A DNA stretch of 64,000 bases, from contig CAXREJ010000051.1 of NCBI GenBank assembly GCA_964229765.1, positions 52,662-116,661 of the forward strand, written 5' to 3'. Shown piece by piece: positions 11,215 through 61,126 of this stretch. The notes under the pieces were generated by a model. It did not search any database. It had not been told where the DNA came from and saw nothing but the letters and a program-made list of their open reading frames with translations. The position numbers and the translations under genes are program-made. The first letter of the stretch is position 1, and each line of letters begins with the position of its first letter. This DNA comes from Bdellovibrionales bacterium (GTDB lineage Bacteria; Bdellovibrionota; Bdellovibrionia; Bdellovibrionales; JAGQZY01).

Positions 11215-11796
11215 TTACTTCAAGCCATCAGAAAGTGCTGTGACGTTCTTCAAGTTATCCATTGAATACTCATCTGGATTCGTTCCTGTTGTGGTAGGCA
11301 CTCCAGAAATACGAATTGTAAAGGCATTCGCAGTGGCAGATGACATTCCCATTGTCGGATCGGTCCAACCAATCACACTTCCGGCCATTCCGGCAGTTCC
11401 CATTTGCCACTCTTTGTACATAGAGCAGTTTCCGCCGCAGGTACAGGCCGCTTGACCATTGATACAAGCTGCATCTTCAACTTGCATGTAAGGAAGAACG
11501 AAACCCATGTTATCAGCAGCGGTTAAGTTATAATTAAGTGTGCCTTGTGGAGCAAAACCAGTACCAACAAAGTTACCAGGAAATTGGGAATACTCGGTGC
11601 GTGAGGCGTGAGCAGCAGCGTAGTAGGCTCCCATAAGAGCAAAACCTTCTTTTTGACGCGCTTTTGCTTGGAAAGTCTGATAACTAGGGATTGCAATTGT
11701 TGAGAGAATAGCAATAATAGCCACAACAACCATCAGCTCAATCAACGAAAACCCTTTGTTTTTAAGTAATGAAAGAAATTTTTTATTTTGTGACAC
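11215..11796 (-). CDS. pilA: Type IV (type IVa-like) major pilin
   Basis: GTG start. The prepilin leader and N-methylation site are KGF|[24 protein letters not shown]. The C-terminal globular part is Cys-rich ([17 protein letters not shown]). Confidence 0.9.
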
Positions 11797-43773: not shown

Positions 43774-44010
43774 ATTAAGAGTTTCGTAGAAACTCGTAGA
43801 TATTAAAAACTTAGACGTCCTAGGGGAGCGTGCGACCATTATAAATTGAAGGAAAAGTGGGAGGTGGTGAACAACTTCTCATTCCCATGGGGATTTGAAT
43901 TCCTCCACCACCGGCATTAAGAGTTTCGTAGAAACTCGTAGATATTAAAAACTTAGACGTCCTAGGGGAGCGTGCGACCATTATAATTGAAGGAAAAGTT
44001 GGAGGTGGTG
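43774..44010. repeat. Two direct copies of a ~96-bp unit (43774-43869 and 43916-44010; period 142 bp)
   Basis: attaagagtttcgtagaaactcgtagatattaaaaacttagacgtcctaggggagcgtgcgaccattataa(a)ttgaaggaaaagt.ggaggtggtg is present twice, near-identically. Each copy ends in the complement of the tRNA-Cys 3' end. Confidence 0.9.
43858..43912 (-). pseudogene. Degenerate tRNA-Cys remnant (acceptor stem plus T-arm-like hairpin only)
   Basis: The minus strand reads GGTGGTG-GAGGAATTCAAATCCCC-19 nt-CACCACCTCC. Positions 43889-43912 match the T-arm/acceptor segment of the true tRNA at 23 of 24 nt. The D and anticodon arms are missing. Confidence 0.6.
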
Positions 44011-44073
44011 GAGGAATTCGAATCCCCGTAGATGGATTTGCAGTCCACTGCCTAGCCGCTCGGCCACACCACC
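44000..44073 (-). tRNA. tRNA-Cys (GCA)
   Basis: The sequence GGTGGTGTGGCCGAGCGGCTAGGCAGTGGACTGCAAATCCATCTACGGGGATTCGAATTCCTCCACCACCTCCA folds as a cloverleaf. It has a 7-bp acceptor stem, anticodon loop CTGCAAA, T-loop TTCGAAT, discriminator U73 (a Cys identity element) and an encoded CCA. Confidence 0.93.
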
Positions 44074-49665: not shown

Positions 49666-51330
49666 TTACTTCCAGTTGTCTCTAAGGCTAACAGAACGAT
49701 TAAAAACTAAATCATTAGAAGTTGAATCTTGGTCAAGACAAAAGTAACCCACGCGTTCAAACTGAAAAGATTCTCCAGGCTGTGCGTTTTTTAGCTCTGG
49801 TTCTCCGTAACAGGGATCAAGAACCTCTAACGAGTTTGGATTGAGAAATTCTAGGAAGTCTTTACCTTTATGACCTGTTGGATTGGGATCATTAAATAGA
49901 CGATCATAAATGTTAACCTTTAGAGGGACAGCTTCTTTGGCAGACACCCAATGGATAATCCCTTTAACTTTTCGGCCTTCAGGATTTTTCCCAAGAGTAT
50001 CAAGATCAACAGAAGCTTTAATTTCAACAATGTTTCCTTCATCATCTTTAATGACATCTTCACACTTGATGACATAAGAATTTCTGAGGCGAACTTCTCC
50101 ACCTGGTTTTAAGCGGAAATATTTTTTTGGAGGATCTTCCATGAAATCATCGCGATCAATCCAGATTTCATTAGACATGGGTAAATCTCTTGAGCCCATG
50201 GACTCATCAGACGGATGGTTGGGAGCCGTCAGTGTTTCATTGCGATCATAATTGATAAGAGTGAGTTTAAGGGGATTGAGTACGACCATGCGCCTCTGAG
50301 CTTTGCTATTGAGATCAGAACGTAAGCATTCCTCAAATTGACTGTAATCAATGATCGAATGGGCTTTAGAAACACCCACTTGGCGGCAAAGCTCCCTTAT
50401 GGATTCAGGAGTGTACCCACGACGTCTTAGTCCGCGCAATGTGGCCATGCGAGGATCATCCCAGCCAGAGACATGACCTTCTTCGACCAATTGCTTAAGC
50501 TTTCTTTTGGAGACAATAACATGGCTAAGGAAAAGTTTTGAGAATTCAATTTGTTTAGGAGGTTCTTGAAAATCCAATTCTTGTAAAAACCAATCGTAAA
50601 GCGGGCGGTGGTCTTCAAATTCCAAAGTACAAATGGAGTGAGTGATGTTTTCAATGGCATCAGAGATTCCATGGGTGAAATCATAAAGAGGGTAAATGCA
50701 CCATTTATCACCGGTGACAGGGTGGTGAGCATGACGTATGCGATATATGAGAGGATCACGCATATTCATATTTCCGGAGGTCATGTCGATTTTGGCCCTT
50801 AAAATATGCTCTCCATCTTTAAAGTCACCATTTTTCATTTTCTCGAAAAGTTCTAAGTTTTCTTCGACAGTGCGATCGCGAAAAGGGGAGTTCTTGCCTG
50901 GAGTATTATGATCACCTCGGTATTCTCGCACCTCTTCTTCAGAAAGAGAGTCTACATAGGCTTTGCCTTTTTTAATAAGTTGAACAGCGTAATCATAAAG
51001 TTGATCAAAATATTCCGAGGCATGACAAAGGTTATCCCACTGAAAACCGAGCCATTTTATATCGTCTTTGATGGCCTCAATGTATTCAGGGTCTTCCGAA
51101 ATGGGATTGGTGTCGTCAAAACGTAAATTGCACTGGCCCGAGTAAATTTGTTTAAGTTCAAAATTTAGGCATATTGATTTGGCATGACCAATATGGAGGT
51201 ACCCATTGGGCTCGGGCGGGAAGCGAGTGTGGACTCGTCCTGAGTTTAAACCAGCTTTCAGGTCTTGATCGATGATGTTTCGAATAAAATTCTTTGCTGG
51301 TTCTAATGTTTTTTCTTCAGCCATTGCCAT
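49666..51330 (-). CDS. glnS: Glutamine--tRNA ligase
   Basis: [17 protein letters not shown] (HIGH), VSKRKL (KMSKS-like), and [10 protein letters not shown] at the N-terminus. I start at the internal MAMAEEK. The 39-aa hydrophobic extension of the long ORF looks spurious. Confidence 0.93.
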
Positions 51331-51403
51331 CCTCCAAAGCTTTGTTTTTAGCATAAAAATTCCATTTTCACCTTTGAAAATTAATGTTATTCCAAGAATT
51401 CCT

Positions 51404-51919
51404 ATGAAAACGCAAAAAGTGATCATTTTCACCACGGGTGGAACCATTGAGAAAAGCTATAATGAGTTTGATGGCTCATTGGAAAACCGCCAGTCTCGTT
51501 TGAGAAACCGTTTGTTATCTCGATTGCGTTTGCCTCATACTGATGTGGAGCTGCATGAGCTGATGGCCAAAGACTCCCTTCATATGGATGATGAGGATCG
51601 AAAAAAAATCTGGGAGGCCATCGTCAGAGTTTTTCCTCATAAGGTTCCCATCATCGTTTTACATGGAACGGACACGATGGAAAAAACGGCTGAGTTTTGT
51701 TTTGCTCAAGATTCTGAGCCCCCTGTTCCCGTGGTATTTACTGGGGCTATGAAGCCCATGGGGTTTGAAGATTCTGATGCTCCGCAGAACTTTACGGAGG
51801 CTATGGCTGTTTGCCAGGTCATCAAGCCTGGGTTTTATGTCTCTTTTCATAATCGTGTTTTTTCGGTCCCCAGAGTCAGAAAGAACAAACAACGCCGAAC
51901 CTTTGAATCAAAGGATTAA
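51404..51919 (+). CDS. Stand-alone asparaginase/glutaminase N-terminal-domain protein (~171 aa)
   Basis: From the internal Met [19 protein letters not shown] (TGGTI nucleophile motif) and [10 protein letters not shown] (HGTDT motif). The ORF ends about where full-length type I/II asparaginases begin their C-terminal domain. Confidence 0.65.
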
Positions 51920-55832: not shown

Positions 55833-56165
55833 AATTTCTCTCCATGAGATTCATTAATGAGGTCATTCAAGGTTTATAATTGATAAACTTAAATATGGAG
55901 AGAGGCATGCCGTTTTTACATTTATGTAATATCTATAGCTCTTTACTTAATCTTGAGTTTTAAAAGATTGATCATTTTGATCCTCATTTAATATCAATTA
56001 TGGTGAGTGCACGAGCAAGTAAAAAAGAACAACCGTTATTTGTAATTTTTTCCCAACTTTTTGGTAAATTGACCTCATTTCAGAAGAATGGAATTCTCAA
56101 GTCTTCATTTCTATTGGGGAAATTTAACATAAATCCGGGGGGAGAGTTGTTGAGGAGATTGTCTG

Positions 56166-59100
56166 ATGAACTTCAGAGGGAACTTTCTTAGGGGACTTAT
56201 CGTCATATTATTGTTGCAATGGGGTTTTGTCGTTTTTGCCGACTCGGACTCTGAAGCCGATACCATTTTACAAGAATTAGTATCAGATAGTGATTTTGTT
56301 GTATCCTATATTGAAGCAATGCTTGAGTTGAGAACTGGTGTGGAGCACGAAGCTATTTCCAATGCCATTGAAATCACCAACAGAATTCCTTCAAGACAAG
56401 TTTACGAAATTTTGAAAGATCGGTTTGAAAGACTACCGGATATTGCTGATATTCTAGAGATCCCTGAGTTAAAAGAATCCATAGTCGCACTGCTAGAAGG
56501 GTTTAAGACCGTTTGTTCTCAGAGAGATCGACAGTTGTTGGAAGACTTTTCTCACTGGGCTATTTTAACATTTCAAGATCCAGCCATAGAAGTACAGTTA
56601 GATCAAGTGCGGACTGTTATCAGCGAAAGAGGGGAGCAGCCCATTGAACTCGTTGATTTAAATCGTGGCCCTTTTCAACAGGCTTTATCTGCAGCCGGTG
56701 CTCTACGTGATGAGTTAGGATCTATAGGGCTTAATCCTGCAGAACAAAACTCATCAGTTCATCAAGCAGCCTTGAGTCAGGTGGAGAGATTTAGAGAGAT
56801 ATTAGAAAGTAAAGTTGTAGGACAGCAGGATATAGTGAGTGCTTTCACAACTCTCTATTTAAAAGATCTACTTTTTGACGGCCATCGAAGACAACCTGAG
56901 CTATTTTACTTTATGGGTCTTCCTGGAAACGGTAAGGACACTCTGGCTGAAGAGTATGTCGATGCTCTTTATCAAACACGAGGGGCTCATCAGGACCATA
57001 TGTTTGCGATGAATATACGCTCTAAAGAAGAGGCCTGGAGTTATTTTGGTTCAGGCAAAGGTTATGTGGGCTCTAGTGAGTTACCAGCCTTTCTGAAATT
57101 TTTAGTGCAACACTCAGGAGGAAAATACATTTTAGCGGAAGAACAGGATGGACTCACCAAAAGGAAAATTATCGAACGTAATCCCGATTGGCGTGAAAAT
57201 GATGGACTGATTATCAATGGTCCTCATAAAGCAGTGGTCTTTGTTAATGAGGCCCATAATATACCTAAAGAAGTTAAAGACAATGTTTTAAAGCAAGCGA
57301 TTGAAAGAGGTATTTTTCCCATCACCAATCCAGGGTCCTCCCAGAATTCTGTGGAGAAAATAGAACTACCTGTCACTTTTATCTTCGCAAGTAATGAAGG
57401 TATTGACTTATTAGAACCAAGAAATCGTAATGGTACAAGAACGGGGCCCCCTCTTTCATTTGAAGATCTTATTGCAAATTATCATTTAGTGGCTGAGGAC
57501 AAAGAAATATTAAAGCAAGCCATACTAAGAACCAATGGGGGTGTTAACGATGTTTCTCGTCCGAATGCACCAGGAACTTCAGAAGAGTTTTTAAATCGAT
57601 TTCCTGATCATCGTATACATATACTAAGACCCTTTTCTCCAGAAGAGCGCTTTGAAGTAGCAAAACGTATTTTAGAAGCTCGTTTAGAAGAGTTGAGCCG
57701 AGCGAGAGGAAGTTTGGGGAATTACGAAGTACAGGTTTCTGATGAAGTGATTCGTTTTATTGCCGACTATAACGTTGTTCCTTCAGAAAATGCTCGTCCC
57801 ATAAAAGCTAGGGTTGAATCCTTTGTACTCAACAATATTCTTGAGGCCTTAAAATCTCAAAGAATAAGACCTTTAGGTGAGACACAAAGAATCGTTATTG
57901 GCTTGAGAGAGTATGAAACAGGAGTGAGAAGTCTGGTTTTCCAGGCCAGTGACCTACAAGGGGAAAACTCTTATCAATTTACTCGTCTTGTACGTGAAAC
58001 TTTAAGAGAAATTCCCAGGGCTCCTCTGTCCCAAGAAAGAATTGATGAAATTTTAGCAATGCGCGAGAAAATAACCTCCAATGTTTTTGGAGTGGAGCCC
58101 ATTGTTGATCGCCTCTTAGAAGCGGCATTAGTTTCTGAATCAGAAGCTCGTAATTCTAAAGAGTCGAGTCGTCCAGCAACGGTTATGGCTTTTCTTGGTA
58201 AATCATCCACGGGTAAAACGGAGACGGCTAAACAGTATGTTAAAGCTCGTTATGGTGAGGACTTCAAGCCAACAGTGATTGATTTTAATGGTGTGCGTAC
58301 TATCGAGGCTATGGAAGCTAAAATTATGGGGTCTTATGATGGGAATAAAAACCCCATTCCCTCTGATTTTATGAAAGCCTATGATCGCGCCAATGGCAAT
58401 ATCACATTTATCTTTGATGAAGCGGCGAATTCCCCTAAAGAACTTTTAAAAGCTCTTTACGAAGTGACTCGTGAAGCCAACGTCACAGGTTTCAGTGATG
58501 GTAAGTCTCGTCCTATGAATAATGTCACAATTATCTTAACGGGTAATGCTGGAGAACAAATTTATAATAATATTCCAGAGGGGCTTCCAAGGCTCGTTCG
58601 TGAAAGAGCCATGAATGAAGTTTTTCAAGTCTTTCTACAAAATGAAGATATCAGACATCGAATTTTAACGGAGTCTTTTCCTGAGGCTCTTTTGGCTCGT
58701 CTTGGACAAAATATTTTTCACTTTGGACCCTTGCAAGATGATGGCAAAAGACAAATTGCTCAGTTGAAATTAGAAAAAGGCTTGGAAAAATTACGTCCAA
58801 CAGCCAGTGAAAGAGGCTGGCAAGTCAGCTTTGAGTCGGAGTCGGACTTATTGGGTTTATTTGAAATGATTGAACATCAGGGCTTTAAACTGGATGAGCA
58901 AGGAGCTTCTATTGACAAATTTGTACGTGAAGCACTTATGGATAGAATTAAGTCTCGTTTGTTAAAAGAAGGAGTTCCCTCTGGAGATGTAGTTTCCATT
59001 GAGCTTAAAGAAGATAGTAAAACTATTAACGACAGAGGCACTCGATATTTATTTAGAGAAATGGTTCTTCATCACAATGATCGAGAATTTTCCATTGAAA

Positions 59101-60230
59101 TACCATTAGGTGTCGATCAACCAAGGATTGGTAAAACGGATCACGATCGAATTCTTACGGCTTATCACGAAGCCGGTCATGAACTTGTTTCCAGTGTGTA
59201 CTTTGGTGATAAAGAAAAACCAGTTTATTTATCTATTATTGAAGGAGTGGCTCTTATAGGTTCAACTCTTGTGCCTTATAATGGTGTTCGTAAGGGTGAA
59301 GTGGAAATCGAGTCTCGAAACAATAAAGAAGTTGTTTTGAGAGAGGCCGCTATACTGGCTGCTGGATATGTCGCTCAACAATTAATTACTTTGGGAGCCA
59401 GAGATGATGGCGGGAAAAGTAATGACATGCTGAGGGCTACAGGGTTAATTCGCAATGCCATTCTAAGGCAAGGGTTAAGTCAACGTTGGGGAGTAAGGGC
59501 GATACCTGAAGGTCTTTCCAATGAGGACTATATTGCTAAAGAACTCTCTACCAGTGAAAAAGAAGAGTTGAATCGTTTAACTTCTGAGTGGTTGCAGGTT
59601 GCAGAGGATTTAGCTCGTGAAGCTATCTGGGTTAATATGGATAAACTTTTTGTTCATATGTCTAAGGCGATTGCTCAAGAAGGACAAATTTATGGTGATC
59701 AGATTCTTGAGCTTTATGAACAGTATGGTGTGTTGACTGAAAGAGATGAGCAACGTTACCAAGAAGTTGTCGAACAAATCTATGAAGTCACAAACTTTAT
59801 TGATGAAAGTATTGAAAAAGTGGGAGATCGTTTTTATCAACGCTATACTGAAGATAATTTTTCTTGGGATAAAGCAGAAGAAGCCTTTGCGTTCTTGAGT
59901 CGAAGAAATAGTGGACTTGTTAATATGTTTAATCCACTTTACCGCAGTTCTTGGGAGTCAATGTCTGATACACTTAAGATGGTTGTGGCTTCTCGCTTAA
60001 GTTCTCATATTCAATATCGTCGTCGAGATGCTCAAATAGCATCAGACACTCTTCTGCCAGAGAGGGTGGCTAATATTGAAGATATAATCGCTATGGAAAG
60101 AGATGCGAGAACCTCAAGAGTGACTGAACTTGAAAGGTTTAATATTATAAGATCCAGTGACACCACAAGAGGGGCTGCTGAAAGCTCCTCGATGGCACCT
60201 GAAGTTTTAACTTGTTCACGAATTTTTTAA
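56166..60230 (+). CDS. Giant fusion protein: signal-peptide-like N-terminus, two ClpA/B-D2-like AAA+ modules, and a C-terminal FtsH-type (M41) zinc metallopeptidase
   Basis: 1354 aa with GAGGAG 8 nt before the ATG. Module 1 (aa ~205-560): VVGQQDIV, GLPGNGKD, GSGKGYVGSSE, VVFVNEAH. Module 2 (aa ~630-935): GKSSTGKT, TFIFDEA. Peptidase (aa ~990-1200): AYHEAGHELV (59166-59180), AAGYVAQQL, GGKSNDMLRAT. Confidence 0.7.
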   Translation: MNFRGNFLRGLIVILLLQWGFVVFADSDSEADTILQELVSDSDFVVSYIEAMLELRTGVEHEAISNAIEITNRIPSRQVYEILKDRFERLPDIADILEIPELKESIVALLEGFKTVCSQRDRQLLEDFSHWAILTFQDPAIEVQLDQVRTVISERGEQPIELVDLNRGPFQQALSAAGALRDELGSIGLNPAEQNSSVHQAALSQVERFREILESKVVGQQDIVSAFTTLYLKDLLFDGHRRQPELFYFMGLPGNGKDTLAEEYVDALYQTRGAHQDHMFAMNIRSKEEAWSYFGSGKGYVGSSELPAFLKFLVQHSGGKYILAEEQDGLTKRKIIERNPDWRENDGLIINGPHKAVVFVNEAHNIPKEVKDNVLKQAIERGIFPITNPGSSQNSVEKIELPVTFIFASNEGIDLLEPRNRNGTRTGPPLSFEDLIANYHLVAEDKEILKQAILRTNGGVNDVSRPNAPGTSEEFLNRFPDHRIHILRPFSPEERFEVAKRILEARLEELSRARGSLGNYEVQVSDEVIRFIADYNVVPSENARPIKARVESFVLNNILEALKSQRIRPLGETQRIVIGLREYETGVRSLVFQASDLQGENSYQFTRLVRETLREIPRAPLSQERIDEILAMREKITSNVFGVEPIVDRLLEAALVSESEARNSKESSRPATVMAFLGKSSTGKTETAKQYVKARYGEDFKPTVIDFNGVRTIEAMEAKIMGSYDGNKNPIPSDFMKAYDRANGNITFIFDEAANSPKELLKALYEVTREANVTGFSDGKSRPMNNVTIILTGNAGEQIYNNIPEGLPRLVRERAMNEVFQVFLQNEDIRHRILTESFPEALLARLGQNIFHFGPLQDDGKRQIAQLKLEKGLEKLRPTASERGWQVSFESESDLLGLFEMIEHQGFKLDEQGASIDKFVREALMDRIKSRLLKEGVPSGDVVSIELKEDSKTINDRGTRYLFREMVLHHNDREFSIEIPLGVDQPRIGKTDHDRILTAYHEAGHELVSSVYFGDKEKPVYLSIIEGVALIGSTLVPYNGVRKGEVEIESRNNKEVVLREAAILAAGYVAQQLITLGARDDGGKSNDMLRATGLIRNAILRQGLSQRWGVRAIPEGLSNEDYIAKELSTSEKEELNRLTSEWLQVAEDLAREAIWVNMDKLFVHMSKAIAQEGQIYGDQILELYEQYGVLTERDEQRYQEVVEQIYEVTNFIDESIEKVGDRFYQRYTEDNFSWDKAEEAFAFLSRRNSGLVNMFNPLYRSSWESMSDTLKMVVASRLSSHIQYRRRDAQIASDTLLPERVANIEDIIAMERDARTSRVTELERFNIIRSSDTTRGAAESSSMAPEVLTCSRIF

Positions 60231-60313: not shown

Positions 60314-61126
60314 CTACATAATAATATTGCAAGTTAGGCGAGTTAAGACTTCAGTTAAGGCATTCTCAAGTCCTTGGGAGTCTTCAGCTATTGATAAAAA
60401 ACCATCAGGAGTTATAACTTCTTGTTCGTAGAAGTCACTCACTTCAGGGTAGTCCATGGCTGTTTGATTAACACCGCCTTGATTAAGAGGTGAGAAGATT
60501 CCACTTGAACGAGGTTGTTCCACATCGAAAAAATTATTGAGATTAATGGGTACCCCATAAACTTGCACCCCCGTATCGTAGTTGTTTTGTCTTAAGGATC
60601 TTAAGTTTTCCAAATTAGGGTAGAGTCTTGAATCGTATCCGTCACCAGAAATAAGAATGGATTGTTGTCCCATTGCGGTGCTATTTTCATGGATGTATTC
60701 ACTGGAAAAATTGAGTGCACTATAAAGTTCAGTTGTTTCACCAACATTTCCGACACCATAACTATTGTCGCGAGCCATTTGAGTAAAAATATTTGCCAAG
60801 TTTTCAATATCTTCACGAGTTTCCATTACTTTAAATGTAGACTCAATTCGAGGAACACTTCCCCAGAAGATGACAGCAATTTCTGTACATGTGCATTCTA
60901 ATAAGTTGTTTACAACTTCAGGGTTACGTAAAGAATTGGCATAACCTTGTAATTGCACGCTTCTTTCCTGAGTGTTCATTGAACCGGAGAGGTCCATTGA
61001 TAAGACAACAGAACTTTCTGCACGTCCACGGGATCTTTCGCAAACAGTCGCTTGCCCGATGGAATGAGTTAACAAGAGGCCTAAAAATATGAAAGCTTTG
61101 ATTTTAGTAGACAATATTTCCTCCAA
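60314..61126 (-). CDS. Secreted vWA-fold protein, DUF1194-like
   Basis: Signal peptide (LLLTHSIGQA|T). MIDAS-type MDLSGSMN, IAVIFWGS, ILISGDGYD and VYGVPIN follow the remembered DUF1194 order (DVSGS ... WSG ... DVSGDG ... INGLPI). Confidence 0.65.
   Translation of the reverse strand: MEEILSTKIKAFIFLGLLLTHSIGQATVCERSRGRAESSVVLSMDLSGSMNTQERSVQLQGYANSLRNPEVVNNLLECTCTEIAVIFWGSVPRIESTFKVMETREDIENLANIFTQMARDNSYGVGNVGETTELYSALNFSSEYIHENSTAMGQQSILISGDGYDSRLYPNLENLRSLRQNNYDTGVQVYGVPINLNNFFDVEQPRSSGIFSPLNQGGVNQTAMDYPEVSDFYEQEVITPDGFLSIAEDSQGLENALTEVLTRLTCNIIM

Follow-up and report, generated by a model that had tools for sequence, protein, structure and literature searches.

What kind of protease is encoded by one long open reading frame (ORF) of a Bdellovibrionales bacterium, and on which side of the cytoplasmic membrane would it work? 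The window analysed here is a stretch of 64,000 nucleotides (contig CAXREJ010000051.1, positions 52,662 to 116,661), and the ORF occupies positions 56166..60230 (+) of the window, single and uninterrupted, with 1354 amino acids (aa) plus the stop codon. The encoded protein (hereafter, AAA-M41 protein) is ordered as a Sec-type signal peptide, a helical-repeat N-domain, two AAA+ modules (AAA-1 and AAA-2), an FtsH-type zinc peptidase (M41), a helical extension and a Cys tail. An earlier reading of the letters (hereafter, the sequence-only reading) had called the architecture undescribed, and this stood: no Pfam or NCBIfam model covers the combination of a signal peptide, two D2-type AAA+ modules and M41, and no description of a Clp-D2 plus M41 architecture was found in the literature searched. 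Every motif that it had quoted was found in place within ORF 56166-60230. We suggest that this is a genuine lineage-specific AAA+ protease gene of the Bdellovibrionota, with predicted ATPase and protease activity in its product and, by analogy with related machines, probable assembly into a hexamer.

The zinc peptidase (aa 986-1190; 59121..59735 (+)) was assigned from the profile Peptidase_M41 (PF01434), which matched aa 992-1179 above the gathering score (E value of 6e-10), and from structure alignments. FtsH_fam of NCBIfam matched via its protease half (aa 990-1179), and the C-terminal domain aligned with the FtsH structures 7zbh and 2ce7 across HEAGH and SG..ND..AT. Residue conservation was counted in 130 representatives spanning about 30% identity. 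The zinc-binding/catalytic motif HEAGH (H1001, E1002 and H1005; 59166..59180 (+)) was present in all of them. D1087 (59424..59426 (+)) was conserved in 129; it lies in the GGKSND of GGKSNDMLRAT (aa 1082-1092) and aligns with the "ND..AT" of FtsH, where its counterpart is the third zinc ligand. An FtsH (M41) peptidase, as read from the motifs, was confirmed by the profile score, the conserved zinc-site residues and the aligned FtsH structures.

AAA-2 (aa 613-940; 58002..58985 (+)) was identified as a canonical ClpB D2-type module by Pfam, NCBIfam and a phmmer search of the PDB. The Pfam match was weak (AAA_2, aa 670-803), and the NCBIfam models ClpV, ClpB and ClpA matched via their D2 halves at aa 613-950. 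Walker A is GKSSTGKT (aa 678-685; 58197..58220 (+)) and Walker B is TFIFDE (58404..58421 (+); FIFDEA at aa 748-753). Each of K684, E752, the sensor-1 residue N794 and the Arg finger R845 is invariant (130/130), in agreement with the intact second D2-type module expected from the motifs, of which the Walker A lysine had been numbered K683 and is correctly K684. AAA-2 has no aromatic pore-loop residue: N727 aligns with the Tyr of Hsp104, and the column holds Arg, Asn or Gly family-wide. QGAS takes the place of the sensor-2 GAR of D2 modules.

AAA-1 (aa 205-575; 56778..57890 (+)) comprises a large domain and a D2-small domain of the ClpB/Hsp104 D2 type, based on Pfam and PDB phmmer matches. ClpB_D2-small scored above its gathering threshold at aa 497-573, and Torsin matched weakly at aa 205-277 (20.5 vs the Pfam cutoff of 27) and more strongly in relatives. 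The alignment with Hsp104 D2 spans Walker A (GLSGSGKT vs GLPGNGKD), GYVG and the sensor-2 of D2-small. The two modules were homologous to each other over 309 columns in a profile-profile comparison (hhalign, probability of 95%), and by their profiles the pair is a tandem of D2-type modules, not D1-D2.

The nucleotide-binding site of AAA-1 is unusual. In its Walker A (GLPGNGKD, aa 251-258; 56916..56939 (+)) Asp258 replaces Thr/Ser, and its Walker B (VVFVNEAH, aa 357-364; 57234..57257 (+)) carries Asn361-Glu362; GKD and NE thus stand, as a coupled pair, where GK[TS] and hhhhDE are expected. The two substitutions occur together in 103 of the 130 representatives, and of the 109 sequences with the Walker B Asn, 108 also have the Walker A Asp. 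Among the other combinations, there were four cases of GKD with DE, one of GKT with DE and none of GKT with NE. Individually, K257 was conserved in 119/130, D258 in 115/130, N361 in 109/130 and E362 in 108/130, and the sensor-1 Asn, the Arg finger R478 and the sensor-2 Arg in 115, 114 and 115, respectively. The ASNEG motif is at aa 408-412. The pore loop GSGKGYVG (57048..57071 (+); GSGKGYVGSSE, aa 295-305) aligns with the GYVG of Hsp104 D2, and a G-[YFH]-[VIL]-G loop is kept in about 121/130, the sole such loop in the family.

AAA-1 had been taken for a degenerate and probably non-hydrolytic module. The odd Walker residues are real, but degeneration is not what the conservation indicates: identity of the large domain across the family is 60% for AAA-1 (68% for AAA-2, and 53% for M41), the Lys, Glu, sensor-1, Arg finger, sensor-2 and GYVG are retained, and GKD and NE are coupled. 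AAA-1 is better described, from these counts, as a non-canonical site under strong selection, not a decaying one, and it looks as if the Mg-binding carboxylate had moved from Walker B to Walker A and the site had not been lost. About 12 lineages (about 12/130) have no Walker A Lys in AAA-1, therefore hydrolysis by ring 1 may be dispensable in some members; ring 2 is retained throughout. The coupled GKD/NE pair offers a naturally occurring test of how Mg-ATP is coordinated in AAA+ sites. AAA-1 also has an insertion between the pore loop and Walker B (window 57120-57230, aa 313-355) with a conserved HSGGKY...NPxW, modelled as a beta-hairpin, of which ClpB D2 and AAA-2 have no equivalent.

The AlphaFold model of aa 190-1354 had a mean predicted local distance difference test (pLDDT) score of 84.6. 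About 800 of its columns aligned in Foldseek with two-ring ClpC, ClpC1, ClpB, ClpA and Hsp104 (E values of 1e-17 to 1e-13), so that Clp-type AAA+ assignments are supported by profile searches (Pfam, NCBIfam, PDB phmmer) and by structure. The all-alpha helical-repeat N-domain (aa 26-200; 56241..56765 (+)) was modelled with a pLDDT of 85.7 and has 20% identity across the family. Foldseek gave no significant PDB match for its fold (best E value of 0.2, HEAT/ARM-like designs only), and no Clp_N domain was matched by Pfam in the N-terminal region.

Homologues were collected by a word-indexed sequence search and by an exhaustive phmmer scan over 1.84 billion representatives. The former returned 44 full-length homologues (1250-1360 aa, identity of 42-59%). 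The latter gave 114 matches at E <= 1e-30, and about 100 clusters (50% identity, 1230-1660 aa) were matched over the entire span from AAA-1 through M41. A phyletic survey of the Clp-D2 plus M41 fusion, a check that the sequence-only reading had suggested, located it in Bdellovibrionota only: in a collection with one genome per species, the gene was present in 36 species, all metagenome-assembled genomes (MAGs) of this phylum (Bdellovibrionales, Pseudobdellovibrionaceae, Bdellovibrionaceae, Bacteriovoracaceae and Oligoflexia), with no cultured strain among them. One Bdellovibrionaceae MAG (L012) has two tandem family copies (ORFs of 1275 and 1324 aa) within one 19-kb locus. A distant clade of about 26% identity (14 representatives, 1170-1574 aa) includes P0046 (locus L042), P0164, P0173, P0176 and P0193. 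Its layout is a signal peptide, a D1-type AAA, two D2-type modules, M41 and usually a C-terminal Cys, that is, three AAA+ modules per chain, with all Walker motifs canonical; a search for relatives with P0046 returned mostly ordinary ClpB. Relative to this three-module clade, the family in the window appears to be a derived form, judged by its domains and motifs.

How does the AAA-M41 protein relate to known AAA+ machines? By the criteria for membership in each family, as far as its sequence tells, it falls outside FtsH, class I Clp/Hsp100, torsin and Lon. The resemblance to FtsH lies in the C-terminal M41 domain with HEAGH and the Asp of ND..AT, fused downstream of an AAA+ motor, in the N-terminal hydrophobic segment and presumably in a hexamer with an internal proteolytic chamber. 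However, FtsH has one classic-clade AAA (PF00004 with the second region of homology), whereas the AAA-M41 protein has two of the Clp/Hsp100 D2 type, and the catalytic part of FtsH is cytoplasmic, behind two transmembrane helices, whereas here one segment is found and the charge bias points outward. In Pfam, PF00004 was not matched and the modules matched AAA_2, ClpB_D2-small and Torsin instead; TIGR01241 scored 37 against a cutoff of 600, aligned only over model positions 413-597.

Class I Clp/Hsp100 proteins (ClpA, ClpC, ClpB and Hsp104) likewise have two AAA+ modules per chain, stacked as two rings, an arrangement predicted by analogy for the AAA-M41 protein, and they share the D2 hallmarks (VGQ lead-in, GYVG, D2-small and the sensor-2 GAR/NAR) and gave the best structural matches. 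In contrast to their D1 + D2 arrangement, both modules here are D2-type; Clp_N, the M-domain and a ClpP-docking partner are missing, and a covalently attached metalloprotease and an export signal are added. Neither Clp_N nor AAA_lid_9 was matched by Pfam, AAA-1 aligned with Hsp104 D2 instead, and the equivalog models for ClpB, ClpA and ClpV scored 49-62 bits against cutoffs of 885-1232.

Lon (LonA/LonB) is also a self-compartmentalised hexamer in which a Clp-related (HCLR-clade) AAA+ is covalently fused to a peptidase. The statement of the sequence-only reading that Clp/Hsp100 D2 modules are never fused to a peptidase in the textbook families accordingly holds for Clp D2 plus M41 and fails as a general rule, with Lon as the counterexample. 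Unlike the AAA-M41 protein, Lon forms a single AAA+ ring, its peptidase is of the Ser-Lys S16 type, and it resides in the cytoplasm or is anchored to the membrane on the cytoplasmic side; S16 and Lon_C had no Pfam match here, and there was only marginal AAA similarity to mitochondrial Lon (E value of 0.19). Torsins are Clp-D2-derived AAA+ proteins behind a signal sequence in an oxidising extracytoplasmic compartment, the lumen of the endoplasmic reticulum, and their Walker A Thr is replaced too (GKN in torsin, GKD here). They differ in having one module, no protease and no Arg finger and in needing LAP1/LULL1, whereas the Arg finger and sensor-2 are kept here. Skd3 (human CLPB), a mitochondrial disaggregase that was among the PDB matches, has a helical-repeat N-domain followed by a ClpB-D2-type module and resides in a periplasm-equivalent compartment, but it has a single D2, no protease, and ankyrin repeats unlike the fold predicted here. 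Given a supply of ATP, Clp-D2-derived and M41 machines do work in periplasm-like or oxidising compartments: Yme1 (which, as the i-AAA protease, represents FtsH in mitochondria beside the m-AAA protease) and Skd3 act in the mitochondrial intermembrane space, and torsins act in the lumen of the endoplasmic reticulum. In general, by analogy, the AAA-M41 protein would work most like a hybrid of ClpA and FtsH.

The evidence for location comes from the N-terminus. The putative Sec-type signal peptide (aa 1-25, MNFRGNFLRGLIVILLLQWGFVVFA|DSDSE; 56166..56240 (+)) is the sole hydrophobic segment in the protein. Signal-peptide calls were made with our own heuristics for charge, hydrophobicity and cleavage-site pattern. 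Of 144 relatives, 126 carry a segment with n/h/c layout, and those without it include sequences that are clearly truncated or wrongly started. What is conserved is the form of the segment, not its sequence (22% identity). Over these 126 relatives, the n-region had a net charge of +2.8 vs -1.2 for the 15 residues after the hydrophobic segment, and the bias indicated N-in/C-out in 114 and N-out in 4. At the median, the uncharged stretch is 18 residues long; in 110/126 it ends in a small-x-small site, usually with Asp or Glu next. No twin-arginine motif or lipobox Cys was seen by eye in the listed N-termini of relatives. The AAA-M41 protein has 2 Cys in 1354 aa (0.15%), compared with about 1% for the remaining window ORFs, a sevenfold depletion, and relatives typically carry 1-3.

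By these heuristic tests the protein has the n/h/c layout, the small-x-small site and the net non-positive early mature region of secretory proteins of the Sec pathway (signal peptidase I). The signal-peptide features hold family-wide in form, charge bias and cleavage sites, which bears out the signal-peptide-like N-terminus noticed earlier in the single sequence. With or without cleavage of the signal, the tests agree in placing most of the protein beyond the cytoplasmic membrane, and cleavage itself seems likely.

We lean towards the AAA-M41 protein being an exported ATP-dependent protease that acts in the periplasm or in a prey compartment; its location, ATP source and substrates are what we infer. 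In this mechanism a cleavable Sec signal peptide would export the chain from the cytoplasm, and the mature protein, of about 150 kDa, would form a hexamer as ClpA/ClpB and FtsH do, with two stacked D2-type rings atop a ring of six FtsH-type zinc-protease domains. Substrates would be captured, probably with the aid of the variable helical-repeat N-domain, and gripped by the GYVG loops of ring 1. ATP hydrolysis would then drive them through the axial channel, with a contribution that would be certain from ring 2 and that ring 1 may add to via its non-canonical GKD/NE site, and cleavage would occur inside the enclosed M41 chamber. The work site would be the predator periplasm and/or the prey compartment, with ATP from ruptured prey and folded prey proteins as targets. 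Outer-membrane porins admit molecules as small as ATP. During epibiotic predation by Bdellovibrio exovorus, rupture of the prey inner membrane is accompanied by in situ digestion of prey protein and DNA, carried out by effectors that are secreted early (PMC11055950).

Several points weigh against an exported ATP-dependent protease. The periplasm is generally held to lack ATP (PMC5740924), therefore an exported ATPase needs a special ATP source. The signal-peptide assignment is based on heuristics. Neither ring is a textbook translocase: AAA-2, the canonical ATPase ring, is the one without the aromatic pore loop and the sensor-2 Arg, and AAA-1, the ring with the pore loop, has the unusual Mg ligands. 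All-against-all clustering of ORFs from 36 related loci revealed no conserved operon partner, adaptor or secretion gene nearby. Also, with no cultured strain among them, the carriers are taken to be predators on taxonomic grounds.

The same machine may instead be kept in the envelope of the predator, as a housekeeping or remodelling protease acting on the predator's own envelope proteins, either soluble in the periplasm or held at the inner membrane by an uncleaved signal anchor, and powered only by porin-borne ATP during feeding. The topology evidence serves this explanation equally well, no secretion-system gene is linked, and quality control is the function of FtsH, from which the protease domain derives. 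Hydrophobicity over 19 aa also reaches the level of a membrane anchor in 24/36 members. However, the small-x-small sites followed by acidic residues in most relatives favour cleavage, the restriction to Bdellovibrionota better suits a lifestyle-specific role than general housekeeping, and the problem of ATP supply is unchanged. We consider retention in the predator envelope unlikely.

A cytoplasm-facing analogue of FtsH, with an N-out/C-in anchor and with rings and protease running on cytoplasmic ATP, would do away with the problem of ATP supply. Membrane segments are found at the N-terminus of FtsH as well, and the segment of many members has a hydrophobicity that would suit a transmembrane helix. 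Its chances are slim, as the charge bias is opposite to the one required, with only the 4 of 126 relatives favouring N-out, and the uncharged stretches are 18 residues long at the median and end in AxA-like sites. The strong Cys depletion, together with a single invariant Cys, would further be unusual for a cytoplasmic protein of 1350 aa in this genome.

Could the protein be exported and work without ATP? Its AAA+ modules would then be an oligomerisation or substrate-binding scaffold, or structural nucleotide binders, of a protease-chaperone whose proteolysis is not coupled to energy. This agrees with a periplasm without ATP (PMC5740924), with the non-canonical Mg ligands of AAA-1, with the AAA-2 devoid of aromatic pore loop and sensor-2 Arg, and with the members that have lost the AAA-1 Walker A Lys. 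We nonetheless regard it as very unlikely, as the Lys, Glu, sensor-1 Asn and Arg finger of AAA-2 are invariant in all 130 representatives at about 30% identity, which would be difficult to account for if no ATP were hydrolysed. An assembly or gene-calling artefact that joined a clpB-like gene to a separate ftsH-like gene, the chimera against which the sequence-only reading had warned, has virtually no chance and is already refuted, because the full architecture is conserved end to end across more than 100 independent clusters and the 36 species; the GC content is also even along the gene, the identical protein (P0001) is on record from an NCBI assembly and on two contigs, and no support for such an artefact was found.

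If the AAA-M41 protein is exported as we favour, its significance lies in the compartment. Bacterial energy-dependent proteolysis is taught as strictly cytoplasmic (ClpXP/ClpAP, HslUV, Lon and FtsH), and the envelope is thought to use ATP-independent proteases because it lacks ATP. A two-ring Clp/Hsp100 motor joined to an FtsH protease behind a signal peptide is a new AAA+ protease architecture. Confirmed export would break the compartment rule, and confirmed use of ATP outside the cytoplasm as well would define a new category of extracytoplasmic machine. No earlier description of an ATP-powered bacterial protease outside its own cytoplasm was found in the literature searched, in which the phrases "periplasmic AAA+" and "secreted AAA+ ATPase" had zero occurrences among about 8 million papers. 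If true, it would also be a concrete candidate for the dismantling of folded prey proteins by Bdellovibrio-like predators. The protein is predicted to be soluble apart from the signal peptide, therefore ATPase, unfoldase and protease assays and cryo-EM are feasible.

A bolder version, possible although we would sooner doubt it as a whole, is that this is the first bacterial Sec-exported ATP-dependent unfoldase-protease outside the cytoplasm of its producer, a predator weapon that uses the victim's ATP on folded prey proteins, with ring 1 coordinating Mg in a new way (Walker A Asp paired with Walker B Asn) and an invariant C-terminal Cys tag for sorting, anchoring or latency that is shared with other secreted proteins.

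This Cys tag is in the C-terminal part. The helical extension (aa 1191-1325; 59736..60140 (+)) is mostly confident in the model and has 32% family identity, and it is followed by a flexible tail ending in ...EVLTCSRIF (60141..60227 (+), pLDDT < 50) with the invariant Cys1350 (60213-60215 (+)). A Cys was found within the last 25 aa of 140/144 relatives, distant clade included, in the motif [ST]-C-[ERK]-x-[LIF]-[LF], after which 0-10 residues remain. A CaaX prenylation box was ruled out, as it would need exactly three residues behind the Cys, a spacing seen in no member, and so was a lipobox, by the position and spacing of the motif. No NCBIfam model of a sorting signal matched the tail or the neighbouring proteins described below.

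Two unrelated neighbours, both with a signal peptide, end in a similar way. The convergent downstream gene (60314..61126 (-)) encodes a 270-aa signal-peptide protein with DUF1194 (vWA-like) that ends in ...LTRLTCNIIM, that is, [ST]-C-x-x-hydrophobic-hydrophobic as in the AAA-M41 protein. It is not conserved at other loci; the homologue search returned only itself, and phmmer against the ORFs of related loci gave nothing. Pairing of AAA+ with vWA proteins is frequent in other systems. In a related Bdellovibrionales MAG, a 288-aa signal-peptide ORF directly upstream of the family gene (L001:230-1096 (+)) ends in ...RSCRNFFISN and has no Pfam or NCBIfam match. These sequences hint, with two neighbours being a small sample, that the Cys tail is a shared tag for sorting, anchoring or disulfide partnering rather than a "cysteine switch" onto the zinc; for the latter, the tail has a pLDDT < 50 in the monomer model.

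At its 5' end, the AAA-M41 gene is preceded by a Shine-Dalgarno-like GAGGAG (56152..56157 (+)), read directly from the sequence 8 nt 5' of the ATG; the upstream gene is divergent and lies across 330 bp of intergenic DNA. In promoter and terminator scans the counts did not exceed those of shuffled sequence, and a base composition scan was uniform, with no sign of recent transfer of the gene. A possible link to defence systems was rejected, as the PADLOC match is generic and ClpB-like (DolB, 79 residues) and is no evidence. In the clustering of related loci, an ABC-F gene within 8 kb of the family gene was the sole recurring neighbour (9 loci), and the remaining recurring ORF clusters were antisense ORFs inside the family gene.

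Elsewhere in the window, the ORF of a GlnRS/GluRS-type tRNA synthetase (49666-51447 (-)) starts about 70 codons before its Pfam match and has a hydrophobic N-terminus; its mechanically assigned start is probably too far upstream. It is overlapped by a 215-aa ORF (51272-51919 (+)) whose sole match is to the N-terminal asparaginase domain and which abuts the ABC-F gene. The sole RNA gene found in the window is a tRNA-Cys (44000-44073 (-)). Signal-peptide-like N-termini occur in about half of the larger window ORFs, and a type IV pilin-like ORF is located at 11215-11796 (-), which is consistent with a Bdellovibrio-like organism having a large secretome.

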